Source: a virus
Lineage: Duplodnaviria > Heunggongvirae > Uroviricota > Caudoviricetes
DNA: 18,918 bases
IMG/VR virus record: IMGVR_UViG_2695420617_000013
Location: 1 to 18,918 of that record
Strand: one strand, 5' to 3'
The notes below the pieces were generated by a model. It saw nothing but the letters and a program-made list of their open reading frames with translations, had not been told where the DNA came from and ran no database searches. The position numbers and the translations under genes are program-made. Position 1 is the stretch's first letter. The number at the start of each line of letters is the position of its first letter. This document shows, in pieces, positions 1 to 18,918 of this stretch.

Positions 1-1028
<1,028 letters not shown>

Positions 1029-1901: not shown

Positions 1902-1905
1902 TGGA

Positions 1906-2510: not shown

Positions 2511-2570
2511 TTGATTTTATTCGTAACAAGTATTTTTTATATTTTAATAACATATTTAAAGCAGATAATA

Positions 2571-3928: not shown

Positions 3929-3931
3929 CTT

Positions 3932-4024
3932 AACGTCGGGTATACAAAGCCCATTGTTGAAAACACTTTATCCATATTTTTTGAAAAATGCAAGCATTAC
4001 GTCGCCATCTTCGGCGAAAATCAT
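3932..4024 (-). promoter_or_regulatory. Candidate late promoter (pR-prime-like) and qut region immediately downstream of Q
   Basis: On the minus strand: TTGCAT, 17-nt spacer, TAAAGT, followed about 50 nt later by the terminator hairpin. This position and architecture mirror lambda pR-prime/qut/tR-prime. Inference only. Confidence 0.3.
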
Positions 4025-4777
4025 TTATCTCGTCACTTTTCTTAATTGCACCTCAGCATATGCTTCTTCCTGCCAGCACTTTGTAACCAGTTTATCAATG
4101 ACATCTGCATATCCTGTGTACCACTGATAATCAGTCAGGGCTGGTACCAGCTTCTGGACATGACACCGCGCCAGTGTCGTTGGTAAACGACTAAACCGGT
4201 TTCCATTGCAACGCCCACAAATCTTATAAACAGGCGCGCCATGAAGCCGGGTCCTTTTTTCATCCAGGACAATACCTTTACCCTTACACCCTCTGCACGC
4301 TGTGCTGACTTCTCCCTTACCATGGCAATGCTGACATAGTTCCTTCACCCACTCTTCCTTGATAACAGATTCCCCGCTTCTGGAGTGTTTCACCACTTCG
4401 CGCAATACATTATGAAATCCAGTACCTGCACAATGCTCACAGCGAGCCTTACTTGCCGCAGACCTGGAATAATCAGCAAAGGCAAAATTCACAAGGTAAG
4501 GGATGATCTGTAACCGGATTTCTTCACTCAATTTATTCAATGTCGGGTTATCCAGTGCCATCGCGTAATTGAGCAGACCTTCAATCGCAAACTGAGGATC
4601 CTGAACACCAACTTTTGCCAGGAATAAGGCAAAACCCAGTGGTGCTTTCGACTGCACCATCCCCTGCGCAGCCATCACATCCGTAATCGTTAAACCACCC
4701 GAGCCTGTCGCCGGTGCGTCATCACTCAATTTTGGAGATTTTGGGGAGTAATATTTTGGTAAGGCTTCAAGGTTCAT
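4025..4777 (-). CDS. quuQ: Late-gene antitermination protein Q (250 aa from the ATG at 4777)
   Basis: Cys-rich zinc-binding region (CQHCHGKG...CRGCKGKG...CGRCNGNRF), with the position upstream of the late promoter and lysis genes. ATG at 4777 with GGAG RBS; the ORF-track start at 4819 is GTG. Confidence 0.8.
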   Translation of the reverse strand: MNLEALPKYYSPKSPKLSDDAPATGSGGLTITDVMAAQGMVQSKAPLGFALFLAKVGVQDPQFAIEGLLNYAMALDNPTLNKLSEEIRLQIIPYLVNFAFADYSRSAASKARCEHCAGTGFHNVLREVVKHSRSGESVIKEEWVKELCQHCHGKGEVSTACRGCKGKGIVLDEKRTRLHGAPVYKICGRCNGNRFSRLPTTLARCHVQKLVPALTDYQWYTGYADVIDKLVTKCWQEEAYAEVQLRKVTR

Positions 4778-4790
4778 GCTCGTTCTCCAC

Positions 4791-5786
4791 TTACGCCAGT
4801 ACGCCTGTTGCCAGCGCACGATCGATAAAACGAAATATCAGCTCCAGCTGGGAGCCATACTTCTCTTCAAATGCCACGGTATCCGCATGCAGCTCGTCGT
4901 GATGCTTTCTGCACAAAGGCAACACAAAGAGGTCATGCGCTTTTGTTCCCATTCCACCCTGACCGTGACCTATCAGGTGGTGGGGATCATCAGCAGGCTT
5001 TCCACAACATGCACACGGCTGTGTCTTAACCCAGCGCGTGTACTTTTCATTAACCCAGCGGCGACGTTTTGGGCGTAACATAAAAGACTCCGGCGACTCC
5101 GGATCCACTTTCAGCGCCAGCACCTTTTTTGCCTTATCCTGGATGATGCTGGTGGCAGGAACCGAAGGCACAAGGTCACTTTCCCGGGTGACAGACGGCA
5201 CAACAGGCTTTGGTAATCTCAGTGCCTTACGGGCTGCACTTTCCGGTAAGGCATCCGCCAGGTCATTACGAATCAGCCACCAGCACAGTTCCGGCATTGT
5301 CACAACGTGACTATCATCAAAACCGAGATCCCGACGCACAACAGACAACACCCAGCGGGCACAGTTATCCGTTGCCATTGATTCCAGCCGTTCCGTGAAC
5401 TGATCGCGCAGCTGGTTATCGCAGTGCCAGCACAGACGGATTGCGCCCGTAGCGTGTCGCATTGTTGTCATATTCTCGCTGTGCCAGTCGGAATGAGGCC
5501 ACTGGCAGCCTTTTTCACGAAGTAACCAGCTTTCAAGACATTCCACGCCACCAGCACGACGGATCACTGCCTCATTGCGGAACACGGCCCGAACGGCAGG
5601 ATCATCCGCCAGCGGTTGTGATGCCGCCGGAACGGCACCACTGGCGAAAGATGAATAACGTTCCGGCTCAGGCTCCAGCAGGACACGCCCCTGCATAAAC
5701 AAGGGCATCAGCTCTGAACCTGGTCTGAACAATACGATCCCCATACGCGGGGCAATTTCAGGGGTCAGTAGTGCTCTCACGGTCAC
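4791..5786 (-). CDS. ydfU: DUF968-family phage protein with C-terminal HNH-like Cys/His motif (YdfU-like)
   Basis: C-terminal PCACCGKPADDPHHLIGHGQGG...LCRKHHDELH zinc/HNH-like motif. Sits immediately upstream of Q as ydfU does in Qin. Start codon uncertain (GTG at 5786 or ATG at 5744). Confidence 0.65.
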   Translation of the reverse strand: MTVRALLTPEIAPRMGIVLFRPGSELMPLFMQGRVLLEPEPERYSSFASGAVPAASQPLADDPAVRAVFRNEAVIRRAGGVECLESWLLREKGCQWPHSDWHSENMTTMRHATGAIRLCWHCDNQLRDQFTERLESMATDNCARWVLSVVRRDLGFDDSHVVTMPELCWWLIRNDLADALPESAARKALRLPKPVVPSVTRESDLVPSVPATSIIQDKAKKVLALKVDPESPESFMLRPKRRRWVNEKYTRWVKTQPCACCGKPADDPHHLIGHGQGGMGTKAHDLFVLPLCRKHHDELHADTVAFEEKYGSQLELIFRFIDRALATGVLA

Positions 5787-5787
5787 C

Positions 5788-6603
5788 TCAATGAACGGTA
5801 TCGAGCAGCTTTAACAGCTCAGGGAATCGGGATTCGAAGAAATGCGGCTGCGTCTCGCGCGGATTTGCAGGACTGGTGATGTTCTTGCCGAACATGCAGC
5901 CTTTCGCGGTCAGCGACCAGAATTTTTTGATGTTGTTAATCGCGGTACGACTGTATCGTTCGCGTTGTTCAACGATCCCCAGCTTCGCCATCTGGTGATA
6001 TGCCTGATTAGCCGTCAGGCGGATACCATACTGCTTCAGCAGTGCACTCAGCGACAGCGTAGGGCGGCTTGAACCATCTGGCGCATCAGCAGGTGCATCA
6101 ATGGCATAGATCGGCATAAGTTCAGGAAGACCAGCTACCTTTGATAATTTCTGGTATGCACCAAGTTTCGAGGAGTTTGACAGATTTAGAGTCTTTGCTG
6201 CTGATTCAAGCAGAATGACCCCGGATTTAATTTTGTCGGATGTGGTTTCTTCTGGTGATGAATTATGAAGCGCATCAAAAGTACGTATCACTTTTAAGCT
6301 GAATGCCGGGCTGATCCACATTGCATATGCATAGACCAGCTCTTTACAGACATACGTCCCACCATTGCGCCCCTGAATGGTGATGACAGGAATACTACGG
6401 GAATCTCCCGTAGTTTCTTCTTCCAATAATTCCACAAGAGCCTTCGTTTCAGGACGACGCATAAACTCGTGAACTTCCAGCGAACGGGAGGAGCGATTCT
6501 CACCAGCGGCAAGAAGAGCAGCTTTCTGAAGGTCGTTAAGACAGTAGTTAGATTCGAAGTACTGGCGCACAGAAACGCCATCAATTACAAGCAACTGATT
6601 CAT
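5788..6603 (-). CDS. KilA-N domain protein (Roi/antirepressor-like DNA-binding protein)
   Basis: N-terminal region ...IQGRNGGTYVCKELVYAYAMWISPAFSLKVIRTFDAL matches the KilA-N/APSES-type domain signature. ATG at 6603 with GGAG RBS. Confidence 0.65.
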   Translation of the reverse strand: MNQLLVIDGVSVRQYFESNYCLNDLQKAALLAAGENRSSRSLEVHEFMRRPETKALVELLEEETTGDSRSIPVITIQGRNGGTYVCKELVYAYAMWISPAFSLKVIRTFDALHNSSPEETTSDKIKSGVILLESAAKTLNLSNSSKLGAYQKLSKVAGLPELMPIYAIDAPADAPDGSSRPTLSLSALLKQYGIRLTANQAYHQMAKLGIVEQRERYSRTAINNIKKFWSLTAKGCMFGKNITSPANPRETQPHFFESRFPELLKLLDTVH

Positions 6604-6765
6604 TGGTTTCTCCACAAATTTTTATCCACGAGCGGGACTGCACTCCCTTTTCGTTGATGCAGGATGAACTTACTGCGATTTTTAATAGTTATCAAGGATA
6701 CACTGTTCATAAATACAGTATCTTTAACGAGGTAATACCCAAATTTAGGGTGTTGCTCAATTCCG

Positions 6766-7161
6766 TTACCGAGTTGCTAATTTGCAACTCGCTTTTTCGT
6801 ACTTACTGATAGTGATCTCGACCTTCCCCTCCGGGATAACCGGTCCCCACTCCACCAGCATTCTTTTCACCTGACTGTCGTCTTCCCACACCCCCGCGTG
6901 GGTCAGGGCGTCAAACAGCGCCTTGTTATAGTTGTCCAGATCGCGGATCCGGTTATCCGGAGGAAACAACACGATCTCCACTGAAGCAGGTGCCGACGTT
7001 GGTTTCGGCAGACGACGTAACTGCTCAACTATTGCTGCACACGCCGCGCTCTGGAATTTTCGCCCCGCCGCGCTTATCAGGCTCTTACCAGCAAACGCCC
7101 CTTTGTTGGGGTGTCGCCAGTACGTGTTCACGCTGGGCGGAAAAGGCAGGATCAGCTTCAT
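6766..7161 (-). CDS. rusA: Holliday junction resolvase RusA
   Basis: RDLDNYNKALFDALTHAGVWEDDSQV matches the conserved RusA catalytic-Asp region. Start overlaps the upstream gene stop (translational coupling). Confidence 0.85.
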   Translation of the reverse strand: MKLILPFPPSVNTYWRHPNKGAFAGKSLISAAGRKFQSAACAAIVEQLRRLPKPTSAPASVEIVLFPPDNRIRDLDNYNKALFDALTHAGVWEDDSQVKRMLVEWGPVIPEGKVEITISKYEKASCKLATR

Positions 7162-7484
7162 ACTTTCAGGCCTCTCTCATGTAACCAATGGGCTGCACGC
7201 AGCCTGGCGTTTTCCTCACCGGCAAGCAGTGAGCGGATAATCCCGACCGCCTCGCTGTCGTCGTCCTTCACCACGGTATGAAGCGTGATCCCCCGGGCCA
7301 CACCACGCTTTATCGTGATGACGCCTTTTTTCTCCAGTGCGCGAAGATGCTCCACCGCTGCATTCACTGAACGGTATCCCAGCATGGTTGCCACCTCCTG
7401 ATTGGTTGGCGGGAAGCCACGTTCTTTCTGATAAGAAATCAGCATATCCAGCACCTGCTGCTGGCATTGAGTTAACGTCGTCAT
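7158..7484 (-). CDS. LexA N-terminal DNA-binding-domain-only protein (108 aa), lacking the S24 peptidase domain
   Basis: LTQCQQQVLDMLISYQKERGFPPTNQEVATMLGYRSVNAAVEHLRALEKKGVITIKRGVARGITL aligns residue-for-residue with the LexA winged-helix DNA-binding domain ([55 protein letters not shown]). No Ser/Lys autoprotease domain follows. Confidence 0.7.
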   Translation of the reverse strand: MTTLTQCQQQVLDMLISYQKERGFPPTNQEVATMLGYRSVNAAVEHLRALEKKGVITIKRGVARGITLHTVVKDDDSEAVGIIRSLLAGEENARLRAAHWLHERGLKV

Positions 7485-8134
7485 GCCGCCATCTCCCTGA
7501 CCAGTTTTTCCGCCTGCTGGCGAACCTGCGCCAGAAACACCTCACCACATGCCTCAAGTTCATCGCGCCCGATGTAGCTGATTGCCGGTCCCTTCCAGGT
7601 CTTGTCGAAAACAGCAATAGCACCAGCGAAGAAAGCGCCTGTCGGCACCTGCTTCTCATCCTTCGGGATAAACCAGGCAGGCAGTTCAAAACCAATACGC
7701 CCGCGAATAAAAGCAATATGATCTGCATCTTCCGGCCACCACACTTCGCTGGTGGCAGCTTTGATCAGGAAAACATAGCGCCCGCCTTTATCACGCATGG
7801 CACTGGCATGCTTCATGATGTAACGCATGCCGGTGATGTATTGCCCCTCATGCTGACTGGCGCGGCTGTATGGGGGATTACCAAAGGCAGCACCTTTAAG
7901 CTCCGCAAGACGTTCTGACCAGTCATGCGCCAGCGCGTTGTCTTCCGCCGTGTAATACGCGGCACATTTGGCGTTATCACCGTCAGTGAACAGATCCAGA
8001 ACAAACGGACCAAACAGGGTGTTAATTCCCCAGAAAATGTTATCCGGCGTGCGCCACTGATCGCCCACGTCCTTCAGTTCATGGGCTGGTTTGTTCCGCA
8101 GTTCCACCAGCGCCCGGCAATATTTATTACTCAT
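7481..8134 (-). CDS. Phage N6-adenine DNA methyltransferase (Dam-like)
   Basis: NPPY motif (AFGNPPYS) characteristic of N6-adenine methyltransferases. ATG at 8134 overlaps the upstream stop. Typical nin-region phage Dam. Confidence 0.8.
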   Translation of the reverse strand: MSNKYCRALVELRNKPAHELKDVGDQWRTPDNIFWGINTLFGPFVLDLFTDGDNAKCAAYYTAEDNALAHDWSERLAELKGAAFGNPPYSRASQHEGQYITGMRYIMKHASAMRDKGGRYVFLIKAATSEVWWPEDADHIAFIRGRIGFELPAWFIPKDEKQVPTGAFFAGAIAVFDKTWKGPAISYIGRDELEACGEVFLAQVRQQAEKLVREMAA

Positions 8135-8628
8135 TAAGCCCCCACGTAATTCCCTGACAGATACCACTCTTCACCCGATGCAGCGCGCTTGCTGCTTTTC
8201 CGTAAGCACCGCTCACGACGTGCCAGAAAATTGTTTCGTTCTGGCTGGGAGTGGCTTTCACGGAATGCCGCCATCCACACGGTTGCAGCACGACGGTATA
8301 AGCCCCTTGACTCCAGTTCTTCAGCCTGGCGGGTCAGGCACAAAATCACCCGTGGATCGTTAGTGCCGACATAGAAATTGCGCACAGGTCTGGTTTCACG
8401 AACTGGTTGTGGTTCCGGCTCCTGCGCTCTCTCAGTCAGGCGCGGGAAATGTCTGCGTGTATCTCCTTCACAACGGTGAGCCACACGCCCACTCTGACGT
8501 AACTTGCTTGCTGACTGCAGAACGCGCTGCCGTGAGTAACCTGCAAAAGCATCCGCAATGTCTCCGGAAGTACACCCCGGATGGGCTTCAATGAATTTCT
8601 GAACTTCATTCAAAAGACTCATAATCAC
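8134..8628 (-). CDS. PerC-like transcriptional regulator with N-terminal extension
   Basis: C-terminal half (AEELESRGLYRRAATVWMAAF...ERNNFLARRERCL) resembles the PerC/Pch family signature found in enterobacterial prophages. The N-terminal 60 aa are unassigned. Confidence 0.4.
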   Translation of the reverse strand: MIMSLLNEVQKFIEAHPGCTSGDIADAFAGYSRQRVLQSASKLRQSGRVAHRCEGDTRRHFPRLTERAQEPEPQPVRETRPVRNFYVGTNDPRVILCLTRQAEELESRGLYRRAATVWMAAFRESHSQPERNNFLARRERCLRKSSKRAASGEEWYLSGNYVGA

Positions 8629-9566
8629 CCCCTGAATCCTGCCGGGATCTGGCTGTAGTCCACGTTGTCGTAACTGGCTTTGAAGTACGGGTCTTCACGT
8701 TTTTCTGTGTGCGTGCTGACGGACGGCGATAAGCGCAGGGAAAGCTCATCCCATTTTTCCCGCAACTTCGACGGGCTGAGCACGTTACGGCACCAGAACG
8801 GATCGCGGCTGACGCGGCTGTACATCTCGCAGATTTGTTTGTGAGTACGACCATCCTGCACACACATCAGGCGAATTTCGTTTGCCCAGGCTGTCCAGTT
8901 AGGTTCTTTGGGACGAACCACCTCGCCGTCACATTCGGCGGCCTGCTCGTACAGGGCGATGATTTTTTTCCAGAGCCACTGTGCGCAGGTCAAATCATCC
9001 TGCGTCCCCCACTGGCGCTTTTTAGGGCTGAATACAACCGCATCAGGATGGCGAGTTAAAAAATCCTGTTCATCCGTCTGCGTGTCCGGTTGCGAAGCGT
9101 CCGGACGAGAAGGTTTTTTATCTGACGGATCATGTTTTGATTTTACTGACGGATCCCCGACAGATTCTGACGGGTGAAAACCCGCTTTTTTGCCAGATTT
9201 CGACGCATCAAATTTTGACGGGTCAGATTTTGATGCGTCAGATTTTGACGGGTCAGAATCTGACAGTTGAGAAAATGCCGCTGCCTGAAGCTTCGCAACG
9301 TTAAGCTGATAAACATTCGACGCATTGCGGTTACCCTGGCGACGCGCCTTACGCGTTAACCAGCCTTCTGCTTCCAGCCGTGCGATAGCCGTTCTGACGG
9401 TACTCATCCCCGCGCCAATCTGACGGGCAATGGTTTCAATTGATGGCCAGCACACACCTTCGTCATTACTGAAATCAGCCAGGCGGGCCATAATTGCCAC
9501 GCTGGATAACTTCATGCCTGACGCAGCGCAACCATCCCATACATAGCCGGTTAATTTAGTGCTCAT
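8625..9566 (-). CDS. Phage replication initiation protein (O-like), N-terminal wHTH with internal iteron-encoded linker
   Basis: N-terminal HTH (SIETIARQIGAGMSTVRTAIARLEAEGWL), a linker encoded by tandem DNA repeats (SDPSKSDASKSDPSKFDASKS), and a Trp-rich C-terminal domain. Position downstream of cro/cII-like genes matches the lambda O slot. No P- or DnaC-like loader gene follows. Confidence 0.6.
   Translation of the reverse strand: MSTKLTGYVWDGCAASGMKLSSVAIMARLADFSNDEGVCWPSIETIARQIGAGMSTVRTAIARLEAEGWLTRKARRQGNRNASNVYQLNVAKLQAAAFSQLSDSDPSKSDASKSDPSKFDASKSGKKAGFHPSESVGDPSVKSKHDPSDKKPSRPDASQPDTQTDEQDFLTRHPDAVVFSPKKRQWGTQDDLTCAQWLWKKIIALYEQAAECDGEVVRPKEPNWTAWANEIRLMCVQDGRTHKQICEMYSRVSRDPFWCRNVLSPSKLREKWDELSLRLSPSVSTHTEKREDPYFKASYDNVDYSQIPAGFRG
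9121..9265. repeat. Iteron-like direct repeats (candidate replication origin) inside the replication initiator gene
   Basis: About eight copies of a TGACGG(G/A)T-type motif, including three tandem 15-bp units (attttgacgggtcag / attttgatgcgtcag / attttgacgggtcag) at 9211-9255, with AT-richer sequence on one side. This mirrors ori-lambda lying within O. Confidence 0.55.
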
Positions 9567-9575
9567 GACCGACCT

Positions 9576-9914
9576 CTATTTCCCTGAATTTACGACGAAA
9601 CTGTTCGAGCGGACTGAAGCATTCATGCTCATAGCCTTCGCGGAGGTAGATAACCCGTTGTGTTTCCGGCTCCCAACGAATGACTCTGACGGGTACTCCG
9701 TAGTGATCTTTGAACCAGCGGTTAATTTGACGCAAAGGACTGTCTCCTTCTGCCGGTTGAAATCACCCACAGCCCACTCTGCAAAGCTGTGGGTTACAAT
9801 TTCCCTGTCACCTGGTACATTCACTGCATAGCAATACTCCACCTTCGCTTTTCCACCCGGTACAGGAAGCGCAATCAGTTGCGAGCGACGGTAGGGTGTT
9901 GTTAAACTGTTCAT
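9576..9914 (-). CDS. Hypothetical protein (112 aa), translationally coupled upstream of the replication gene
   Basis: Stop TAG lies 9 nt before the initiator ATG, and the strand matches the operon. No domain recognised. An alternative plus-strand ORF (9559..9831) overlaps and was judged less likely. Confidence 0.35.
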
Positions 9915-10525
9915 GCGTTAGTTTCTCCACAATTAGAAGCAATCGACGCCACGACGCCCGGAGCTGCACACTCGCGGGCGTCATTACTTTCTGAAATGCA
10001 AAAGATTTTGTAGACCAGTGCTGCATGCTCCTGCAGCTTCGAAATTGACAGGTACAGTTCGTCGTTAATTGCTGCCTGCTCGTGTGGTTCCACCACCCCG
10101 TCTTCAATTGCTGAACGAATCTGTTTTGAATAACTGCCGATCTGTTCAATGACCTCCAGCAGGCGTTGGTTTATATCGGCGTTCTCTACTTCCTCAATTT
10201 CAGGAAGCGATACAAACACCCCACCAGCAGACTGTGCGACTGCATCCGCAATGTGGTGAGTGCCAGCAGCACGCTGTAAAACCATTGCCCATCCCAGCGG
10301 GAAAATCTGATCGCCATCGGCACGAAGGCGGTTAAATAATGCGTTCTCTGTTACATCCAGCCAGTCAGCAGCTTCAGCGTAACCCCCCGGCAATGCCGCG
10401 ATAGTTTTTCTGACAGCTTTCACGTACCACTCAGGCTGTTTTTCTACTTTCCAGTGATGCTTACCCACGGTTAGCCTCATCGTTCTGTGGTTTCTGTTAA
10501 TCGATTTATCCATTAGATTTTTCAT
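9911..10525 (-). CDS. YdaT-like / cII-position regulatory protein
   Basis: Occupies the slot directly after the cro-like gene, as ydaT does in Rac-type prophages. Start assigned to the internal ATG at 10525 to limit overlap with cro; the ORF-track start is 10582. Family assignment is from position and general resemblance only. Confidence 0.4.
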
Positions 10526-10706
10526 AAAGCTCAGGTTTAAATGGCAACCGTCCGCAAGTTCTATATGCAGCTTCTGCTGCACGTCCTTTTGGAATTAACT
10601 GGCCCGGACGGTTTCGCCACTGATAAACGGCTTCAGTTGTTATGCCGAAAAAAGCAGCAACTTTCTCAATACTGCCGAAGTAGCTTTCGATATCGTCAGT
10701 TGTCAT
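10506..10706 (-). CDS. Cro-like HTH repressor (66 aa)
   Basis: Small HTH protein (FGITTEAVYQWRNRPGQ) transcribed divergently from the cI-like repressor. Strong GGAGGG RBS upstream. Confidence 0.6.
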   Translation of the reverse strand: MTTDDIESYFGSIEKVAAFFGITTEAVYQWRNRPGQLIPKGRAAEAAYRTCGRLPFKPELYEKSNG

Positions 10707-10803
10707 ACGCCCTCCAAACTAAGTTTTATTAGATGCTAATTACAAATCTATCTTTGGTCAATAAAAACTAAGATTACTTAGCAATTCAAGAAATGGTGCT
10801 CCT
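10707..10803. promoter_or_regulatory. Immunity-region operator/promoter (OR-like) between cro-like and cI-like genes
   Basis: 97-bp AT-rich divergent intergenic region with repeated CTAAG/CTTAG half-sites (e.g. CTAAGATTACTTAG, CTAAGTTTTATTAG) and a TTGACC -35-like element for the cro-direction promoter. Confidence 0.4.
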
Positions 10804-11430
10804 ATGGAAACGGTTGGTCAGCGTATAAAAGCTCTGAGAAGAGTTACCAGAACGTCCCAGAAAGAATTGGGTAAATTTTGTGGAGTAAGCGACGTTGCTG
10901 TGGGGTACTGGGAGAAAGACATCAATACCCCTGGTGGGGAGGCACTTTCGAAATTAGCGAAGTTCTTCAATACGTCAATAGATTACATTCTTTATGGTGC
11001 TGAGTTTGAAGGCAAACTCGTCACAAACATGCGCAGAGTTCCTGTAATATCGTGGGTTCAGGCTGGGCAGTTTACTGAGTGCAGGGCAGCAGAAGTGTTT
11101 AGTGAAGTGGACAAGTGGGTAGATACATCATTAAAGATTGGTGATAACTCATTTGCATTAGAGGTTAAAGGTGACTCCATGACTAACCCTAATGGCCTCC
11201 CAACAATACCAGAAGGCGCAACAGTGATTGTAGATCCAGATGCAGAACCTCGTCATGGAAAAATAGTCATCGCTCGACTTGATGGAACAAACGAAGCTAC
11301 AGTAAAAAAATTAGTCATCGATGGCCCTCAAAAGTTTTTAGTGCCATTAAATCCTCGGTATCCCAACATCCCTATCAATGGTAATTGCCTTATCATTGGT
11401 GTAGTCAAAGGAGTTCAATACGAACTCTAA
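10804..11430 (+). CDS. CI-like prophage repressor (HTH-XRE N-terminus, S24 LexA-like autopeptidase C-terminus), 208 aa
   Basis: N-terminal HTH (SQKELGKFCGVSDVAVGYWEKD). C-terminal S24 signature with the Ser nucleophile in GDSM and a downstream Lys (VKKL). Implies a RecA/SOS-cleavable repressor. Confidence 0.9.
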   Translation: METVGQRIKALRRVTRTSQKELGKFCGVSDVAVGYWEKDINTPGGEALSKLAKFFNTSIDYILYGAEFEGKLVTNMRRVPVISWVQAGQFTECRAAEVFSEVDKWVDTSLKIGDNSFALEVKGDSMTNPNGLPTIPEGATVIVDPDAEPRHGKIVIARLDGTNEATVKKLVIDGPQKFLVPLNPRYPNIPINGNCLIIGVVKGVQYEL

Positions 11431-11439
11431 GACCTCTCT

Positions 11440-11632
11440 TCTCTAACTAAGGCACCGAACTAAGAAAAGTTTGGTGTTTTCTCTTGCTATAATAACTAAG
11501 TTAAGTTAGATTTTATATCAAAGATAACGAACAGGCAGGACGCCCACGAAGTAGCCGCCGGTGGCGTATGAATGACCGGATGATTCGTTAGCAACAAAAA
11601 AAGCGCCCTATAGGACGCTTCGCTCTTTAACA
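11440..11632 (+). promoter_or_regulatory. Candidate pL-like promoter/operator region with rrn-type boxA-like motif
   Basis: CTAAG operator-like repeats (aactaaggcaccgaactaag; aactaagttaagttag) flank an extended -10 (tTGcTATAAT) near 11484-11492. Downstream motif GCTCTTTAACAA at about 11618-11629 matches the core of the boxA element as I recall it, preceded by a palindrome gcgccctataggacgc. Confidence 0.3.
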
Positions 11633-11664
11633 ATCCTGGTATCCCCGTAACAAAAGAGGGTTCT

Positions 11665-11958
11665 ATGGTCATATTCTGTGCTTACGTTCATCCTAATGGA
11701 TTTTTTATCAGCACCAACCAACAAGACGAATTCTGGATTCTACTTAGTAAGCAGGTCGGATGGGGACGATTCTGTCTAATCCGACCAGAATCAGAATTTA
11801 CAGAGAATGGAGGGCTTTTTGAATTACGTGAAATACGTCCGGCAGATGGTCAAGCCCCTGACCAAGTAATCGAATCGTCAGCTGTTTTATGGCGTCGGCA
11901 GGAAGCGTTCGAAGCTGAGAGAGTAATTTCTTCTTATCTTCAGTCGTGGCAGAAGTAG
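11665..11958 (+). CDS. Hypothetical protein (97 aa), first ORF downstream of the putative pL
   Basis: Good RBS (aaagagggttctATG). No recognisable domain and not Arg-rich (not N-like). Its 3' 160 nt overlap the convergent ORF 11798..12301, so one of the two may be mis-called. Confidence 0.35.
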   Translation: MVIFCAYVHPNGFFISTNQQDEFWILLSKQVGWGRFCLIRPESEFTENGGLFELREIRPADGQAPDQVIESSAVLWRRQEAFEAERVISSYLQSWQK

Positions 11959-12301
11959 AACTATTGATGATACGTTCAAGTTCACAGAGAGTCTCATCAT
12001 GCAATCTTATTGTCATAATCCCAAGAATAGCTTTAAGACCTCCATCATCACGAATGAAATCAATTCCATCTTTAGTAATTCTTAATTCAGGAATATTTAT
12101 ATTTATGCCATCCAAGTAATAATCAAGAGCATTCTTAATCAAGCCATGTTCTTCGAGATAAATTAAGTTCGAAATTAGGACATTATCATCTCCAAATGCG
12201 TCACGAACAGACTGCAACGCATCATCAGAAATTTCATAAGGATGAGCATCATACAGTATTTGTAACAACTGCCTTTGTGCACTTCTATCAAATTTGTCCA
12301 T
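11798..12301 (-). CDS. Hypothetical AT-rich protein with predicted winged-helix motif (DUF2513-like?), convergent with the cI/pL direction
   Basis: Strongly AT-rich coding sequence (about 11960-12300) versus GC-balanced flanks. Motif NLIYLEEHGLIKN resembles a wHTH recognition helix. Opposite orientation to all neighbours. A hairpin (ggtcggat...atccgacc) follows its stop. Confidence 0.5.
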   Translation of the reverse strand: MDKFDRSAQRQLLQILYDAHPYEISDDALQSVRDAFGDDNVLISNLIYLEEHGLIKNALDYYLDGININIPELRITKDGIDFIRDDGGLKAILGIMTIRLHDETLCELERIINSSTSATTEDKKKLLSQLRTLPADAIKQLTIRLLGQGLDHLPDVFHVIQKALHSL

Positions 12302-12579
12302 CTTAAATAATCACCATGTTATTGGGGTTATCAAGATTAACCGAATCCTTGTTGTTGGGGAATAACCAGGTCCACCTCGCCTGATGTGGCTAAAAGCAGG
12401 CACATAACAGCTAAGTATTTTCAACCAGAGAGAATCCTTAGCGTTGTGGTGAATGCGGCTCAGCGCACGCGGGTTAAGGTTGAGGCTGACAGTCGACCTT
12501 CTGTGGATACCCACCCGCCTGGTGTGCAACCTTCGCCAGGCACCGGGAGGCACCCGGCACCACAACAGCCACTGCTTTG

Positions 12580-12714
12580 GCGGTACCAGTTTGTACACTT
12601 GCTTCCGGCTGGTACCGCTCTTTTTACAAAACAGAGAAGAGCATCACCGGACGACGGGCTCATAACCCAATCCACCCGGGCGGCTGCCACCGCAGGTGTT
12701 CTTCTCTGTTTTGT
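12580..12714 (+). promoter_or_regulatory. Structured leader: terminator-like hairpin plus long imperfect inverted repeat upstream of the yfdP-like operon
   Basis: Hairpin cggtaccag-(loop)-ctggtaccg followed by ctcttttt (12582-12625). Immediately after, acaaaacagagaaga...tcttctctgttttgt forms a 15-bp perfect stem extended by 4 more bp across a bulge, enclosing a 46-nt GC-rich loop. The terminator U-tract (ctcttttt) overlaps sequence complementary to the second stem (agaagag), so the two structures are mutually exclusive. boxA-like CGCTCTTTTTAC at about 12617. Confidence 0.4.
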
Positions 12715-12762
12715 GGAGAAACCAACCGACCTTGCAGGGTCGATATGATGAGGAGCAGCAAA

Positions 12763-13125
12763 ATGGCTAGCGAACGCAGTACTGATGTGCAGGCATTTAT
12801 CGGGGAGCTGGACGGCGGCGTATTTGAAACCAAAATCGGCGCAGTTCTCAGTGAAGTCGCTTCCGGTGTGATGAACACGAAAACCAAAGGGAAGGTCTCA
12901 CTCAATCTGGAAATCGAACCGTTTGATGAGAACCGTGTGAAAATCAAACACAAACTCTCATATGTTCGCCCGACTAACCGCGGGAAAATTTCCGAAGAAG
13001 ACACCACCGAAACGCCGATGTATGTCAATCGCGGTGGTCGCCTGACTATTCTGCAGGAAGACCAGGGACAATTACTGACTCTTGCCGGTGAACCTGACGG
13101 AAAACTCCGCGCAGCAGGTCATTAA
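12763..13125 (+). CDS. YfdP-like phage early protein (120 aa)
   Basis: ATG with GAGGAG RBS, directly upstream of the yfdQ/yfdR/yfdS-like genes in the same order as the CPS-53 (KplE1) prophage cluster as I recall it. The ORF-track start at 12577 lies in the structured GC-rich leader and is rejected. Confidence 0.55.
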   Translation: MASERSTDVQAFIGELDGGVFETKIGAVLSEVASGVMNTKTKGKVSLNLEIEPFDENRVKIKHKLSYVRPTNRGKISEEDTTETPMYVNRGGRLTILQEDQGQLLTLAGEPDGKLRAAGH

Positions 13126-13190
13126 TATCGTTTTTAATTAACTGATTATTTATCTCATCACTGAATATTTTTATATAGTGAGGACTTATT

Positions 13191-14015
13191 ATGTCTCAGA
13201 ACTTAGACGCAACCGCAATTAATCAAATCCATGCCCTTATTTCTGCTCAGGGTGTTAATGAAATTATCAGTAAGATTGGTGCCGATGCTGTGGCATTGCC
13301 TGAGAATTTCCGCATTCATGATCTGGAAAAATTTAATTTAAATCGTTTCCGTTTCCGTGGTGCGCTTTCCACTGCCAGCATCGATGACTTTACCCGTTAT
13401 TCTAAAGATCTTGCAGATGAAGGCACCCGCTGCTTTATCGATGCCGATAATATGCGTGCCGTCAGTGTGCTTAACCTGGGTACTATTGATGAACCAGGTC
13501 ACGCAGATAACACCGCCACTCTCAAACTGAAAAAGACAGCACCGTTCTCTGCTCTGTTGTATGTTAATGGCGAGCGTAACTCCCAGAAATCACTGGCAGA
13601 ATGGATTGAAGACTGGGCCGACTACCTTGTGGGCTTTGATGCTAATGGTGACACCATTCAGGCAACAAAAGCGGCTGCGGCGGTCCGTAAAATCACGATT
13701 GAAGCAAACCAGACTGCTGATTTTGAAGATAATGACTTCAGCGGCAAACGCTCCCTGATGGAGTCTGTCGAAGCGAAGACCAAAGACATTATGCCAGTGG
13801 CATTTGAGTTTAAATGCGTTCCGTTTGAAGGTCTGAAAGAACGTCCGTTTAAATTACGCCTCAGCATTATCACTGGCGATCGTCCGGTACTGGTTCTGCG
13901 CATTATTCAGCTGGAAGCGGTGCAGGAAGATATGGCTAACGAATTTCGTGATCTGCTTGTTGAGAAATTCAAGGACAGCAAAGTAGAAACCTTTATTGGG
14001 ACTTTCACCGCCTGA
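13191..14015 (+). CDS. yfdQ: YfdQ-like protein (DUF2303 family), 274 aa
   Basis: Length and sequence character match E. coli prophage YfdQ as recalled. GAGGA RBS. Conserved gene order with the HD-domain YfdR homolog downstream. Confidence 0.7.
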
Positions 14016-14027
14016 TTTCATTACTGC

Positions 14028-14049
14028 AAATGCCCCTGCGGGGGCATTT
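14028..14049. other. Perfect 9-bp-stem hairpin (aaatgcccc-tgcg-ggggcattt) between yfdQ-like and yfdR-like genes
   Basis: Seen directly in the sequence. Lacks a long U-tract, so it is a weak terminator at best; could be an attenuator or RNA processing/stability element. Confidence 0.3.
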
Positions 14050-14142
14050 ATGGAAACATAATTGACTCAATAATCGCCTGATGGCGAGGGTTTTCTTTAA
14101 CCAAAATTCAGCGCGGTGCAGCGCATATACGTGGAGAACAAA

Positions 14143-14679
14143 ATGTCATTTATTAAAACTTTTTCCGGGAAGCATTTTTATTATGACAAGATAAATAAAG
14201 ACGACATCGTGATTAACGATATCGCGGTTTCCCTTTCAAATATCTGTCGCTTTGCAGGACATCTTTCACACTTCTACAGTGTCGCCCAGCATGCAGTGCT
14301 TTGCAGCCAACTGGTGCCGCAGGAATTTGCTTTTGAAGCGTTAATGCATGATGCAACAGAAGCGTATTGCCAGGACATCCCCGCACCACTGAAACGACTT
14401 CTTCCTGACTATAAACGGATGGAAGAAAAAATAGACGCCGTAATCCGTGAGAAATACGGGTTACCTCCTGTTATGAGCACGCCAGTGAAATATGCCGATC
14501 TCATTATGCTGGCAACCGAACGCCGCGATCTCGGACTTGATGATGGCTCTTTCTGGCCTGTATTGGAAGGTATCCCGGCAACAGAGATGTTCAAAGTTAT
14601 TCCACTGTCGCCAGGTCATGCCTACGGGATGTTTATGGAACGTTTTAACGAGTTATCGGAGTTACGCAAATGCGCATGA
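14143..14679 (+). CDS. yfdR: HD-domain 5'-deoxynucleotidase, YfdR-like (178 aa)
   Basis: HD phosphohydrolase motifs (H...LMHDATEAY) and 178-aa length from the ATG at 14143 with GGAGA RBS. The ORF-track start at 14116 is upstream of the RBS. Confidence 0.8.
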   Translation: MSFIKTFSGKHFYYDKINKDDIVINDIAVSLSNICRFAGHLSHFYSVAQHAVLCSQLVPQEFAFEALMHDATEAYCQDIPAPLKRLLPDYKRMEEKIDAVIREKYGLPPVMSTPVKYADLIMLATERRDLGLDDGSFWPVLEGIPATEMFKVIPLSPGHAYGMFMERFNELSELRKCA

Positions 14680-15032
14680 ATGTTTTCGAAATGGAAGGGT
14701 TTCTTCGCGGGAAATGTGTACCGCGAGATCTGAAAGTGAACGAAACAAATGCTGAGTACCTGGTACGTAAATTCGACGCGCTTGAAGCTAAATGTGCGGC
14801 ACTGGAAAACAAAATAATACCAGTGTCAGCTGAATTGCCACCTGCAAATGAAAGTGTTCTGTTATTTGATGCTAACGGAGAAGGCTGGCTGATTGGCTGG
14901 CGTTCTCTCTGGTACACCTGGGGACAAAAGGAAACCGGAGAATGGCAGTGGACATTTCAGGTCGGGGATCTTGAAAACGTCAATATCACTCACTGGGCAG
15001 TAATACCAAAGGCACCGGAGGCAGGGGCATAA
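14670..15032 (+). CDS. yfdS: YfdS-like phage protein (120 aa)
   Basis: Start overlaps the yfdR-like stop (ATGCGCATGA). Same length and position as YfdS in the yfdPQRST cluster. Confidence 0.6.
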   Translation: MRMNVFEMEGFLRGKCVPRDLKVNETNAEYLVRKFDALEAKCAALENKIIPVSAELPPANESVLLFDANGEGWLIGWRSLWYTWGQKETGEWQWTFQVGDLENVNITHWAVIPKAPEAGA

Positions 15033-15652
15033 TGACCACATTTACCGACAAAGAACTGATTAAAGAAATCAAAGAGCGTATAGGCAGTCTGGATGTGCGA
15101 GACAATATTGAGCGCCGTGCTTATGAAATTGCTTTGGTATCGCTGGAAGCAGAACCGGTGGCATGGCTGCATTCAGACAATGGCTTAGGTATTCCGGCAA
15201 TAACACGGAGTAAAAACATTGCTGACAGTTGGTTATCAAAGGGCTGGTATGTTCAGCCGCTATATATAGCCAAGCCAGTGCCGGTGGTGCCAGATGTTCG
15301 TCCATCTTTAAATAATGGCATAGTCGGTTTTGATGAAGGCTGGAACGCCTGCCGCGCCGCCATGCTTCATGGTGCCGAACCTGTAAGCCAAACTTACAAG
15401 TTGAACGAGCTGTCGGGCAACTCTCCGGTAACTCCGGATGGTTGGATAAGCTGTAGTGAGCGAATGCCGAACGATAAACAGTATGTTTGGTGTTGGGGGA
15501 AGTCTTACGGCTGGACTGAGTGCGATACCTTCGAAGGGTATTACGATTGGTCGAGAAACAAATGGTGGGCAATTACTGACGATGGGGAAGAACCGGCATC
15601 GAAAGTAACCCACTGGATGACGCTACCGGAGCCACCGCAGGAGGTGAAGTAA
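15032..15652 (+). CDS. Phage protein with C-terminal DUF551 domain
   Basis: C-terminal Trp-rich motif (PDGWISCSERMPNDKQYVWCWGKS...KWWAITDDGEE...VTHWMTLPEPP) is characteristic of DUF551. Start overlaps the upstream stop (TAATGA). Confidence 0.65.
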   Translation: MTTFTDKELIKEIKERIGSLDVRDNIERRAYEIALVSLEAEPVAWLHSDNGLGIPAITRSKNIADSWLSKGWYVQPLYIAKPVPVVPDVRPSLNNGIVGFDEGWNACRAAMLHGAEPVSQTYKLNELSGNSPVTPDGWISCSERMPNDKQYVWCWGKSYGWTECDTFEGYYDWSRNKWWAITDDGEEPASKVTHWMTLPEPPQEVK

Positions 15653-15900
15653 TGAACAACTTAATGACAACTAAACAAGTCGCCGACTTCTGTGGCGTTT
15701 CAGTATCGACCGTTCTTCGCTGGAACAGTGTAAACAGGAGAACTGGCCAGAAATACAGGCCAGACTTTCCAGATCCTGATATTAAATCCTGCCCAAATAA
15801 ATGGGCATCACGTAAGATTTACAAATTTGCCGGAGTTATTGAGGAATGTGAAGCAGCTCAGATTGAGATGACACATCCTATAGCACATAGCCAAACATAG
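15652..15900 (+). CDS. Excisionase-like / AlpA-type HTH DNA-binding protein (82 aa)
   Basis: HTH (TTKQVADFCGVSVSTVLRW) in a small protein at the distal end of the early-left operon near the integrase, the usual xis position. Start overlaps the upstream stop. Confidence 0.45.
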   Translation: MNNLMTTKQVADFCGVSVSTVLRWNSVNRRTGQKYRPDFPDPDIKSCPNKWASRKIYKFAGVIEECEAAQIEMTHPIAHSQT

Positions 15901-16096
15901 CAATCAGACTGTCCGCTTTGTGTTGAAGCGGACATTGCCGCAGCGACTTGTCTTAGCCATAAATAACCAAAACGATGCGCTGTTCATATAAAGTTCTTTT
16001 AAACTTCAAATCAGTAATTTTTGTCTAAATCTTTTCAAACTCATAAAAACCAGTAAGATAAGAAATCACCTTTACCTGTTTTTATGAGAGGCATAA

Positions 16097-17323
16097 ATGA
16101 TTGATAATGAAGTTAAAATTTTTGCAAAAGAAAAAGAAAAAATGCTGTGCAGCAAACTTTCTTTTTACAGGGAGCATGCTCAATCGAGTGAAGATACAAG
16201 AAAAAGAAACGAATTTGAACGAGACTATGCGCGTATTCTTTATTCCTCTTCGTTCCGCCGGTTACAGGGAAAAATGCAGCTCTTTGAAGTCGATCCTCAA
16301 AAATTTAACCGTAATAGACTGACTCATAGCCTAGAAGTTGCCCAGATAGCCCGAAGCATCGCATCCGAACTAGAACTTGAACATCCTGTTGTAGCAGAAC
16401 TGGCTGCACTTGCTCACGATATTGGCAACCCTCCGTTTGGTCATTCCGGTGAAAAAAAGCTAAACGATATTGCTAATGATTTCGGCGGCTACGAAGGCAA
16501 TGCGCAGGCACTTAGAATACTCAGAAGTCTCGAGATAAAGCATCCAAATTGCCCCGGTCTCAACCTTACCCACCGTGCCATTCTCTCCGTCGTTAAATAT
16601 CCTTATAAAAAGGAAAACGGCAGAAAAAAATATCTTTATAATGATGACTATAAATACTACACAGAATTGGTAAATAGATATGAATTAGATTTGCAGACTG
16701 GCGAGAAGACCATTGATGCACAGATAATGGATCTGTCAGACGAAATTGCATATGCCGCGCATGACCTTGAAGATGCACTAAGCCGTAGCATGGTCAGTAT
16801 TGAAGATATTTTTTATGAGTTTGGGATATCCAAGTACAAAGACTCAATTGATTTATTAAATACAATCATTGAAAAATCTAAATATACAGCTTCGAGAGCA
16901 TCAAGACTCAATTCATCTGAAGAGTTCGCCATAATATTCAGAAAGGAATTGACATCCAATATTGTTAATGCGCTTGTTAATGATATTACTGTTATTCAAA
17001 GTGAAAATGGATTCAAGCAACTTGGATTTAGCACTACAAAAAATCTGTCTGCAGGCCTTAAAGATATCGTATTTAAAGTCATCATGCGAAAAAGAGATAT
17101 TAAAAGTTATGAGCACAAAGGAAACATTATCATCGAAGATTTATTTAATTTTTATAATGATAGAGATAACATAGAATTCATATCCCCTCAATTGTATAGA
17201 ACGCTCCCAAATAAAATAGAGCCTATTTATCAAGAACTTAAAAAACGTGCAATTGTCGACTACATCTCTGGAATGATGGATACATTTGCCATCCGCGAGT
17301 GGGAAACGCATCACAAAAAATAA
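16097..17323 (+). CDS. Dgt-family HD-domain dNTP triphosphohydrolase (dGTPase-like), 408 aa; candidate anti-phage dNTP-depletion enzyme
   Basis: Conserved dGTPase motifs: DYARILYSSSFRRLQGKMQLF, RLTHSLEVAQIARSI, HDIGNPPFGHSGE, DEIAYAAHDLEDA. Strong GAGAGG RBS. The gene is markedly AT-rich relative to the flanking prophage genes and sits alone between the excisionase-like gene and the convergent integrase. Confidence 0.85.
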   Translation: MIDNEVKIFAKEKEKMLCSKLSFYREHAQSSEDTRKRNEFERDYARILYSSSFRRLQGKMQLFEVDPQKFNRNRLTHSLEVAQIARSIASELELEHPVVAELAALAHDIGNPPFGHSGEKKLNDIANDFGGYEGNAQALRILRSLEIKHPNCPGLNLTHRAILSVVKYPYKKENGRKKYLYNDDYKYYTELVNRYELDLQTGEKTIDAQIMDLSDEIAYAAHDLEDALSRSMVSIEDIFYEFGISKYKDSIDLLNTIIEKSKYTASRASRLNSSEEFAIIFRKELTSNIVNALVNDITVIQSENGFKQLGFSTTKNLSAGLKDIVFKVIMRKRDIKSYEHKGNIIIEDLFNFYNDRDNIEFISPQLYRTLPNKIEPIYQELKKRAIVDYISGMMDTFAIREWETHHKK

Positions 17324-17694
17324 CCAAACTGGCGCACATCAACAACAGATTCAGTGCCACTCTTCCCATGGGACAGAACAGTGATTCTGTCCATTATCAC
17401 CCGATTATACAGATAAGCCACATCTAGTAGTTCTGAGCTAGCATTTTCCACATTGATTACGCTTCCGTGCACATCGTTATTTTTAACCAAAAAGAAAGGA
17501 CATACGCAAAAATAATATCAAGTAACGGAGTGTGTTAAATCGTAACCAATCATCTTTACTTTACATTTCGTAACTTAAACCGTACGTTTTCTAAACATTA
17601 AATATACACTTTGCGCTGTAAGTTATATCTCTCCGTTAAGCTCACTGCTCAACGCCAATAGTCATATTTTATTGCGTTCTGGCTGCGCAAATTG

Positions 17695-18918
17695 TCAACT
17701 GGAATCTGAACTAGGACAAGTAACGAGCGATTCAACCCTCTCCCACCATACCTGGTAGGCTTTACGCTGTTCTTCTAGATAATCGCTCTTGTCATAAACC
17801 TGCCATACCCCTGGCAGTTTATGACCAAGCATAATTTCTGCAATATGAGGCGCAGTAAGATCAGAAAAGTTTGTTCGTGCTGTTCGCCTCAAATCATGAA
17901 GAGACCAATGAGGGAATTGATACCCCAAACGTCGCCATGCGAACTGCATTAAATTGTAAGGCAGCGACTGCAATGATGTCCGACCAACTGGCTCCCTGCT
18001 TCCTTCCTTAGTAAAAAGCATATCGGAACCGTTGTTCATAGAGATAACGTATTTTATAAGCTCTTCAACCGGTTCAATAATGGGCCGCTTTAGTGGTTCG
18101 CCTGTTATCTCCCCTGTCTTATGTCGTTCTGGCGGTACAGTCCATACCTTATTAATGAAATCAAAATCGTCCACCCTGGCGGTAATTAGCTCTGAACTAC
18201 GGCAGCCAAAATGCAGCAATAGTTTAATGAAGGCCCGGTATTTAGGAACCATTCGAGAACCATCGATCGCAGCATAAAGGATTTTAATTTCATCATGTGT
18301 CAGAAACCGTTTCTTCTGACCTTTACGGATATCCATATCTTTACCCGTGATATCCGACAGCGGGCGAGTTTCAATGAGCTTTCTCTTATACGCCCAGACA
18401 TGGGCCTGCTTTGCGTTAATTAGTAATCGGTCTGCTATTGCTGGAGCCTTAGTGCTAAGAGGCTCCAGGACTTCTAACCAATCATGCAATGTAGCTGCAT
18501 CGTGAGGGATATTCCCGATTTTAGAGAACAGGTGCAGCTCAAACGAGCGGAGTATCTGTTCAGAGCCTTTTTTATTTTTTACACAATATGCTTCATACCA
18601 GGCACGGATCACAGACTCTACCGTCATGGCTTCAGTAGCTTTTCGTTTTTCAGCCTGCTTGACCAATCGTGGATTACGGTTTGACTCGAGTTCACCACGG
18701 AGACGGATAACTTCTTCTCTGGCCTCTTTTAATCCAGTTGCCGGGTAAGTTCCGATATCAAGACGCTCACCTTTCCCTGCCCATTGATAACGATATTGGA
18801 ACACTACGCGACCTTTCGGTGATACTCTGACAGACAGACCATCACGATCGGATTTAACCAAAACCTTATCACGTTCCTTTCCAACGACTGAACGCAACCA
18901 CGCATCAGACAGCGCCAT
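17695..18918 (-). CDS. Tyrosine recombinase / phage integrase with N-terminal arm-binding domain (407 aa)
   Basis: N-terminal arm-type domain (GLSVRVSPKGRVVFQYRYQWAGKGERLDIGTYPATGLKEAREE) and C-terminal catalytic region (HDLRRTARTNF...GH...Y). The ATG is the last three bases of the window, so the attachment site and any tRNA lie beyond the edge. Confidence 0.9.
   Translation of the reverse strand: MALSDAWLRSVVGKERDKVLVKSDRDGLSVRVSPKGRVVFQYRYQWAGKGERLDIGTYPATGLKEAREEVIRLRGELESNRNPRLVKQAEKRKATEAMTVESVIRAWYEAYCVKNKKGSEQILRSFELHLFSKIGNIPHDAATLHDWLEVLEPLSTKAPAIADRLLINAKQAHVWAYKRKLIETRPLSDITGKDMDIRKGQKKRFLTHDEIKILYAAIDGSRMVPKYRAFIKLLLHFGCRSSELITARVDDFDFINKVWTVPPERHKTGEITGEPLKRPIIEPVEELIKYVISMNNGSDMLFTKEGSREPVGRTSLQSLPYNLMQFAWRRLGYQFPHWSLHDLRRTARTNFSDLTAPHIAEIMLGHKLPGVWQVYDKSDYLEEQRKAYQVWWERVESLVTCPSSDSS

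Follow-up and report, generated by a model that had tools for sequence, protein, structure and literature searches.

Early antitermination in phages without N

To our knowledge, antitermination in the early operons of lambdoid phages is known in two forms, one depending on the N protein and its nut sites and the other on the rare put RNAs of HK022 and HK639. Many temperate enteric phages have no recognisable N, among them the Shigella serotype-converting phages SfV, SfII and SfIV and the Salmonella phage ST64B, and we know of no earlier work addressing how the early-left operons of N-less phages (recombination genes, xis and int) are read through. This question is considered here for the early-left leader in positions 1 to 18,918 of the IMG/VR virus record IMGVR_UViG_2695420617_000013 (the whole stretch analysed, hereafter the window), in which a preliminary description, made from the sequence, had noted two boxA-like elements between 11596 and 12630 and no gene for an N-like antiterminator. 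The flagged site matters mainly because it led to a phage leader RNA that is apparently undescribed and very widespread, and that would be a variant on known antitermination themes.

The put RNA is a cis-acting antiterminator that binds the beta' zinc-binding domain (HK022 and HK639; PMC9378689). In clustered regularly interspaced short palindromic repeat (CRISPR) arrays, anti-Rho antitermination of untranslated RNA depends on BoxA only and is free of phage proteins (Stringer et al. 2020, PMC7665894). The gamma-proteobacterial BoxA consensus is GYTCTTTAANA (Baniulyte et al. 2017, PMC5725501); a different use is described in the same paper for the suhB BoxA, which represses translation with no antitermination, the criterion for this type being a BoxA less than 50 nt from the start codon.

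The best explanation of the flagged stretch, to which as a whole we give a probability of about 55%, is that it forms the pL leader of an SfV/ST64B-like prophage without an N gene, long and for the most part untranslated, in which BoxA and Nus factors would block Rho and a 5' RNA may contribute put-like antitermination. Processive antitermination of the early-left operon, as suggested in the preliminary description, is plausible because a strong intrinsic terminator and about 0.8 kb of + strand RNA without annotated or family-supported open reading frames (ORFs) lie between pL and yfdPQ...xis-int; one conserved boxA and the missing N also speak for it, and the second boxA-like element falls away. 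If functional, the consensus BoxA would extend host-factor-only Nus antitermination from ribosomal RNA (rRNA) operons and CRISPR arrays to phage early operons, and the conserved 5' RNA, which is short, defined by covariation and present in cultivable model phages, is a testable candidate for a widespread second RNA-based mechanism. The elements of the leader up to BoxA are the following.

11445-11509, no strand assigned: OL-type operator region, with AACTAAG half-sites at 11445, 11458 and 11494, read from the sequence (operator role putative)
11484-11512, + strand: predicted pL, with -35 TTGCTA (11484-11489), a 17-nt spacer and -10 TAGATT (11507-11512), read from the sequence
11526-11589, + strand: leader RNA motif, a three-way junction, from covariation and blastn conservation
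11527-11531 with 11584-11588, + strand: helix P1
11534-11536 (GGC) with 11542-11544 (GCC), + strand: helix P2, with the loop CAGGA(C/U/A)G
11545-11557, + strand: junction CACGAAGUAGCCG
11558-11562 with 11575-11579, + strand: helix P3
11580-11583, + strand: junction AUGA
11596-11621, - strand: intrinsic terminator for leftward transcription, a hairpin (11603-11618) followed by U7 (on the + strand an A-run, 11596-11602), from a terminator scan and folding
11622-11634, + strand: BoxA GCTCTTTAACAAT, a perfect match to GYTCTTTAANA and a predicted loading site for NusB/NusE (S10)

Like put, the leader RNA is placed at the 5' end of the pL transcript of an N-less phage, measures about 65-70 nt, contains conserved unpaired nucleotides and has terminators downstream, and HK639 also has a single, left-only copy. 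The two differ in fold, since the leader RNA has a closing helix and two hairpins whereas put consists of two tandem stem-loops with a triplex, and in distribution, which is far wider for the leader RNA and takes in T5-like and T7-like phages. Homology with put was considered and rejected, as a model of the leader motif (R1), run with filters off, gave no match with E<0.2 in the HK022 and HK639 loci, and its weak matches in the HK022 immunity and HK639 early regions lie at none of the put sites (putL and putR of HK022, putL of HK639).

Like the BoxA systems of rRNA operons and CRISPR arrays, the locus has a BoxA that fits the consensus perfectly, placed some 100 nt past the predicted start and on the sense strand of a transcript that is long and untranslated; it also lacks a dedicated phage protein, and the role to be expected is the same, protection from Rho. 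It differs in lying in a phage pL leader, downstream of a conserved structured RNA and of a terminator hairpin for the opposite strand; a GU-rich boxC, which we take to be a feature of BoxA systems, was not seen within 40 nt downstream of boxA. As in lambda, the phage has cI, cro, cII and Q and carries the boxA in its early-left leader, but a lambda-type nut site does not fit the arrangement, in which there is no N gene or N-like ORF, the hairpin lies 5' of boxA and not 3', its loop is variable and not GNRA-like, and no nutR equivalent is found past cro.

A structured RNA at the predicted head of the early-left transcript

Among the early-left leader elements, the preliminary description overlooked the most conserved one, the 64-nt RNA at 11526-11589, which is almost certainly a genuine structured RNA, as observed from its covariation. 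In an alignment of 98 distinct sequences (A2), with no internal gaps except one 2-nt loop insertion, 95.1% of the cells are paired (72.4% in shuffles) and the covariation score is 0.574, against 0.149 when shuffled (none of 500 shuffles reaches it) and at most 0.128 in slid controls. Changes on both sides are found at all 11 pairs of P1 and P3, so that 11 of the 14 pairs covary overall, P2 (GGC/GCC) being invariant in A2 and contributing no covariation; RNAalifold returns the same helices, and the window copy scores 92.9 bits with R1. A possible pseudoknot, GCC (11554-11556) with GGC (11563-11565), is likewise invariant in the sample. Because A2 was seeded on a 16-mer of the junction, junction invariance is circular in that alignment. 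With an anchor that leaves the junction free, 83 of 116 distinct sequences carry the 13-nt CACGAAGUAGCCG, the variants falling mainly at two positions, CACG(A/C/U)AGUAGC(C/U)G, with single sequences changing others; this junction, not the GGA sites mentioned below, is the most conserved part of the RNA.

The RNA is apparently undescribed. Rfam gave no + strand match overlapping the motif by more than 9 nt at E values up to 10, with queries of 1.4 kb and 136 nt, and a literature search on the junction sequence returned unrelated primer matches only. A search for cis targets complementary to the motif found only chance-level 8-10-mers.

Some smaller regularities accompany the motif. The P2 loop is CAGGA(C/U/A)G in every member (GGA at 11538-11540 in the window), a sequence that presumably matches the CsrB repeat consensus and is to be taken as a lead, not as a test. 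A second GGA, within GGAUGA (11578-11580 in the window), usually follows 40 nt downstream, so that the motif could be a CsrA target with two sites. A tiny ORF (here AUG AUU CGU UAG) usually begins in the junction AUGA, and in most members a stop codon follows P1.

A 60-nt block of the motif (11528-11587) is 83-98% identical across very different phages (blastn, query 11431-11700). The carriers include ST64B, Pectobacterium ZF40, Yersinia YeP1, Pantoea AH07, Citrobacter phiNP and Aeromonas pAEv1818, as well as the lambdoid phages mEp237 and SPN3UB, the T5-like Providencia phage PSTCR5 and the T7-like Escherichia phage Minorna. An exact-word scan of IMG/VR returned at least 120 stretches, a few of them chance matches, and the leader RNA appears to be common to the early operons of well over 100 phages. 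A scan of genome contigs with a 15-mer, which was too short, was too unspecific to be used (3 real cases, in Kosakonia, Leclercia and E. coli, among the 120 matches listed), so that the host range rests on the phage records.

The motif occurs once per phage, with no copy past cro. In SfV, ST64B, ZF40, SPN3UB and SEN34 it is found 100-190 nt past the repressor gene, where the early-left operon begins, and N is annotated in none of six carrier phage records, these five included; in many members a gene with a ribosome-binding site begins 25-45 nt past the motif. In Minorna, a T7-like Drulisvirus, the motif (54.7 bits; 1159-1236 of locus L249) is found in a 1-kb untranslated stretch near the genome end, and its P1 covaries as UUCGG/CCGAA. 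In T5-like phages, among them PSTCR5 (2497-2574 of L007), it lies upstream of same-strand genes, within the terminal repeat as annotated in the relative PR1, and is followed there by a consensus boxA. In the RecE/Kil-type lambdoid members, a subfamily with CCACC in P1 (L035, 8600-8700; L004, 2570-2700), about 60 nt more are conserved after the motif (GAGAUUAACGCGCAUCAGGUGUAAACGUUCCGCUGGCCGGCGAUAAGG), which points to a further structured element ahead of the first small ORFs.

The -10 hexamer ends 13-16 nt 5' of helix P1 in 33 of the 52 family members (promoter match of at least 9/12), indicating that the motif forms the 5' end of the transcript, and the predicted pL start in the window lies near 11519. 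The best promoter score in close relatives falls on the same TTGCTA-17-TAGATT arrangement; an alternative extended -10, TGcTATAAT, overlaps it at 11485-11493. The heptamer AACTAAG has five copies in the window, at 10717 and 10766 in the cro-cI gap and at the three positions just past cI listed above. One copy forms the palindrome CTAAGATTACTTAG at 10768-10781, the third after cI is part of the near-palindrome AACTAAGTTAAGTTAG, and AACTAAGG is present in the annotated pL of HK639; the heptamers are probably cI operator half-sites, of OR type and OL type respectively.

BoxA and the hairpin that precedes it

The first of the two elements noted earlier exists on the early-left (+) strand as GCTCTTTAACAA, although its coordinates are 11622-11633, 4 nt to the right of the 11618-11629 originally assigned. 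It is the only boxA match with 0 mismatches in the window and, as we take it, identical to the E. coli rrn boxA; 11622-11632 (GCTCTTTAACA) meets the gamma-proteobacterial consensus. By arithmetic, chance would give 0.002 copies of the exact 12-mer in 2 x 18.9 kb; for the 11-mer consensus the figure is about 0.07 per window and about 3e-4 for a 150-nt leader read on the correct strand. The 9-mer core alone is not significant, as at least one match occurs in 100 of 200 shuffles. The predicted pL and operator half-sites lie 110-180 nt upstream, on the same strand.

In an alignment of 15 distinct relatives (A3), GCTCTTTAA(C/A)AAT is the sole fully invariant run, its lone variable column (C or A) being the N of the consensus; the preceding base, the hairpin loop and everything beyond 8 nt downstream diverge. 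In 5 of 46 downstream-context clusters the leader motif is followed by a consensus boxA, where shuffles would predict 0.012, and six scrambled control patterns gave zero matches. Four of these five clusters have one A-run/hairpin/boxA module in common, hence two independent lineages, the second being the T5-like Providencia phage, in which CGCTCTTTAAAAAT directly follows the leader motif without a hairpin. The first boxA is a probable working Nus site.

The palindrome noted before boxA is perfect as the 8-mer cctatagg, whereas the surrounding 16-mer gcgccctataggacgc (11603-11618) has one mismatch, which reads C.A on the + strand and G.U on the - strand. The hairpin folds at -7.2 kcal/mol on the + strand and at -13.1 kcal/mol on the - strand, and the terminator scan detects it only on the - strand; in the + direction it would at best terminate weakly. 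In one relative (L105) a change in the hairpin preserves pairing on the - strand only, and the loops found in relatives (UAUA, UACA, AUA, CGUA, AUC, UAAA, UACC) vary freely. The - strand fold with its U7, the pairing in L105 and the free loop variation identify the hairpin as mainly a terminator of leftward transcripts, which probably come from the 167-aa gene described below. A role as boxB-like partner of boxA is ruled out by the variable loop and the better terminator on the opposite strand.

From BoxA to yfdP

The following features lie between BoxA and yfdP.

11665-11958, + strand: 97-aa ORF, the first + strand ORF after pL; variable cargo, not N-like
11798-12301, - strand: 167-aa gene, AT-rich and moron-like (phrog_3983, full-length, E 2.6e-59)
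12425-12627, + strand: STnc100-like structured RNA (RF02076), a full-length Rfam alignment below threshold
12579-12627, + strand: strong intrinsic terminator, with a 13-bp stem (12579-12591/12607-12619) followed by CUCUUUUU, from folding
12621-12719, + strand: long hairpin of about 100 nt with a lower stem of about 25 bp, directly 5' of the yfdP ribosome-binding site, from folding

The preliminary description had found no N-like gene downstream of pL, and this is borne out within the reach of the tools used: Pfam and PHROGs gave no match to an N-like family among 17 ORFs, including those beside pL or cro, and a scan for Arg-rich windows found no Arg-rich ORF at the expected positions. It had also named the 97-aa ORF as a possible unrecognised antiterminator. 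This ORF is acidic and not Arg-rich, has no Pfam or PHROG family and is left uncalled by RefSeq in the identical E. coli prophage; its only phage homologues (46-48% identity) come from PhiR49_2 and Edwardsiella phage GF-2. It is missing where the boxA module occurs elsewhere, and different cargo takes its place there, so that it is not inherited together with the module and is not credible as a module-specific antiterminator.

The 167-aa gene has a GC content of 0.31-0.36 and is the sole RefSeq gene in this stretch ('hypothetical protein'). A promoter-like site precedes it (12334-12307, - strand), and its transcript would end at the 11596-11621 terminator. As it lies on the opposite strand, the stretch is left untranslated on the + strand. 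The 97-aa (+) and 167-aa (-) ORFs are convergent and overlap by 161 nt at their 3' ends, each with independent support. Between the 97-aa ORF and yfdP, about 0.8 kb of + strand RNA contains no annotated or family-supported ORF and consists of the antisense of the moron, the STnc100-like RNA and the long hairpin.

The second boxA-like element did not hold up. At 12616-12627 the letters CGCTCTTTTTAC do occur, but their CGCT completes the 3' arm of the terminator stem and their CTTTTT forms the U-tract, and 12617-12627 (GCTCTTTTTAC) fails GYTCTTTAANA at three specified positions (A8, A9 and A11). The corresponding sequences of relatives, CCGTCCTTTTT in SfV and CCGACCTTTTT in ST64B, have CCGTCC or CCGACC and then TTTTT, so the T-run alone is kept and GCTC is not conserved; the site is very probably irrelevant to antitermination. 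The terminator itself folds at -21.2 kcal/mol (z -4.3; none of 200 shuffles is as stable).

The 203-nt STnc100-like RNA aligns to model positions 1-206 of 206 with E 7.6e-6 and 36 bits, below the gathering score of 47, and is kept in SfV, SfIV, SfII and ST64B. Given the full-length alignment and E value on the one hand and the sub-threshold score on the other, it is likely a diverged relative of STnc100 and not a certified member. STnc100 is a poorly characterised prophage small RNA related to PasD (bioRxiv 10.64898/2026.05.13.724894). The two agree over the full model, including CACCGGGAGGCACCCGGCACCA and the terminal terminator, and both are prophage-borne; apart from its score, the RNA of the window differs in lying inside the sense strand of the pL operon, where its terminator is also an operon-internal barrier.

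The 5' arm of the long hairpin (-49.2 kcal/mol, z -6.6) overlaps the U-tract of the terminator, and the sequence from 12550 or 12558 to 12765, which includes the hairpin, is shared at 97-99% identity with Stx2/Stx2c phages, mEp460 and phage cdtI. The hairpin is possibly an RNase III site or another small RNA. Some deposited 'hypothetical protein' ORFs, such as mEp460_037 and FIG00638873 (mEp460, L252 3588-3956; window 12311-12748), lie inside these GC-rich structured leader RNAs and are probably not genes. The leader of mEp460 is a different structured one, resembling the sequence 3' of the motif in locus L116.

Proposed mechanism and alternatives

According to the mechanism proposed here, the pL transcript would begin near 11519 and its first 64 nt would fold as the three-way junction. 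BoxA would then load the host NusB/S10-NusA-NusG-SuhB complex onto RNA polymerase, like in rRNA operons and CRISPR arrays, and the Nus-loaded polymerase would resist Rho across the RNA without annotated or family-supported + strand ORFs up to yfdPQ...xis-int. Nus/BoxA complexes suppress intrinsic terminators poorly, and the terminator at 12579-12627 would therefore need a second activity. For this the 5' leader RNA, acting as a cis-acting put-like element that modifies the polymerase, is a candidate because it is promoter-proximal, host-range-wide and invariant in sequence, and for a protein-independent antiterminator it is the better candidate. An antiterminator function of this RNA, analogous to that of put, is still doubtful. 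It is equally tentative to see in it a new class of cis-acting, protein-independent RNA with a fold different from put, which modifies host RNA polymerase or blocks Rho, and such a class might, with no greater likelihood, be common to N-less temperate phages of Enterobacterales and Aeromonas and to T5-like and T7-like lytic phages, sometimes together with BoxA. The 5' RNA may in that case explain the N-less life of its carriers.

Several observations weigh against this mechanism. The P2 loop resembles a CsrA site, which would suggest another partner. Only two independent lineages combine BoxA with the leader motif, and the invariance of BoxA could in part reflect the recent spread of a shared module; BoxA ends 31 nt 5' of the ATG of the 97-aa ORF, which is the geometry of the repressive suhB BoxA. 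In the window, the cro side has neither a boxA nor a second leader motif and thus no equivalent of nutR or putR. Both elements are also absent from K-12 CPS-53 and mEp460, well-studied carriers of yfdPQ, and since mEp460 has the same terminator/hairpin/yfdP block without them, neither is indispensable for this type of operon. No enrichment of sense terminators was seen past the motif (19 of 47 contexts have one, with more on the opposite strand, by our own crude detector), and a crude comparison of ORF coverage did not discriminate boxA-bearing from boxA-less leaders by the untranslated or opposite-strand sequence after them.

The first boxA could be without Nus function, namely the T-rich distal flank of a bidirectional terminator module (A-run, hairpin, TTCGCTCTTT) that moves as one unit at a moron insertion point, its likeness to boxA being due to chance, like that of the second site. 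Both boxA-like strings stand directly 3' of a hairpin and have GCTCTTT in common, the hairpin is a good - strand terminator, and the same module is found in four of the five boxA-positive contexts. A terminator tail leaves unexplained, however, the invariant distal AA(C/A)AAT with variation only at the consensus N, as well as the CGCTCTTTAAAAAT found right after the motif in the T5-like Providencia phage, where the hairpin is absent; on the + strand the hairpin is weak and its U-tract interrupted, and the second site, where GCTC is not kept, exemplifies a mere tail. This makes chance resemblance unlikely. A functional BoxA might instead act negatively, as in suhB, blocking translation of the first ORF, promoting Rho termination and damping early-left expression. 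The 31-nt distance falls within the limit of 50 nt for suhB-type sites, and in members of the vB_EcoM-689R6 type and T5-like members the start codon comes about 50-55 nt after BoxA; yet the first ORF differs by lineage, several members have no ribosome-binding site or start codon after BoxA, and an early operon that must reach xis-int across about 0.8 kb without annotated + strand ORFs has more use for an anti-Rho activity, all of which renders the negative role quite improbable.

The 5' leader RNA, in turn, may not be an antiterminator at all, boxA acting alone and the RNA serving as a platform or decoy for a host factor such as CsrA, as a 5' stabiliser against RNase E or as a ligand sensor. 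Such a role agrees with a P2 loop that always contains GGA and has exactly three variants (CAGGAC/U/AG), with the position at the extreme 5' end of the transcript, with the lack of sense-terminator enrichment downstream and with the genes that begin shortly after the motif in many members. The strongest conservation, however, is that of the junction CACG(A/C/U)AGUAGC(C/U)G and not of GGA, ZF40 has no second GGA, and the occurrence in the T5-like terminal repeat and at the T7-like genome end, both likely early regions, as well as in N-less pL leaders fits a role directed at the polymerase; a role apart from antitermination is accordingly possible at best. That a protein antiterminator that went unrecognised, for instance the 97-aa ORF, uses the hairpin and boxA as a nut-like site is suggested by the hairpin adjoining boxA and by the ORF being the first gene after both, and is contradicted by its lack of a family and of Arg-richness, by phage homologues limited to the two named above, by the different cargo of other hairpin/boxA carriers and by the freely varying hairpin loop, so it can hardly be right. 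The preferred reading remains an N-independent leader in which BoxA and Nus factors would act against Rho, with the 5' RNA as a tentative second element.

Genomic setting of the early region

By Pfam, PHROGs and annotated relatives, the window holds the immunity and early region of an E. coli prophage of the SfV/SfIV/ST64B/CPS-53-like type, and E. coli chromosomes, for example that of strain 631 (NZ_CP040263), carry identical copies as prophages.

4025-4819, - strand: Q-like late antiterminator (Pfam/PHROGs)
10506-10706, - strand: Cro (Pfam/PHROGs)
Further leftward genes, - strand: CII-like protein, O-like replication protein, RusA and endolysin (Pfam/PHROGs)
10804-11430, + strand: cI, of S24/LexA type (Pfam/PHROGs)
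12763-13125, + strand: yfdP (phrog_204), the first widely conserved early-left gene
3' of yfdP, + strand: yfdQ (DUF2303), a nucleotidase, yfdR-like genes, xis and int (Pfam/PHROGs)

This layout confirms that the + strand past cI, on which the flagged stretch had been placed, is the early-left operon. The distance from cI to yfdP is 1.3 kb, and the yfdP-yfdQ...xis-int annotations are concordant in SfV, vB_EcoM-689R6, K-12 CPS-53 and the identical E. coli prophage.

In the late region, 3' of the Q-like gene and 5' of the lysis genes, a full-length cspA thermoregulator 5' untranslated region is found at 2811-3250 on the - strand (Rfam RF01766, 156.5 bits against a gathering score of 78). A cold-shock-like ORF of 71 aa (2874-3089) lies within this stretch, which indicates a phage-borne cold-shock protein moron with its own RNA thermosensor.

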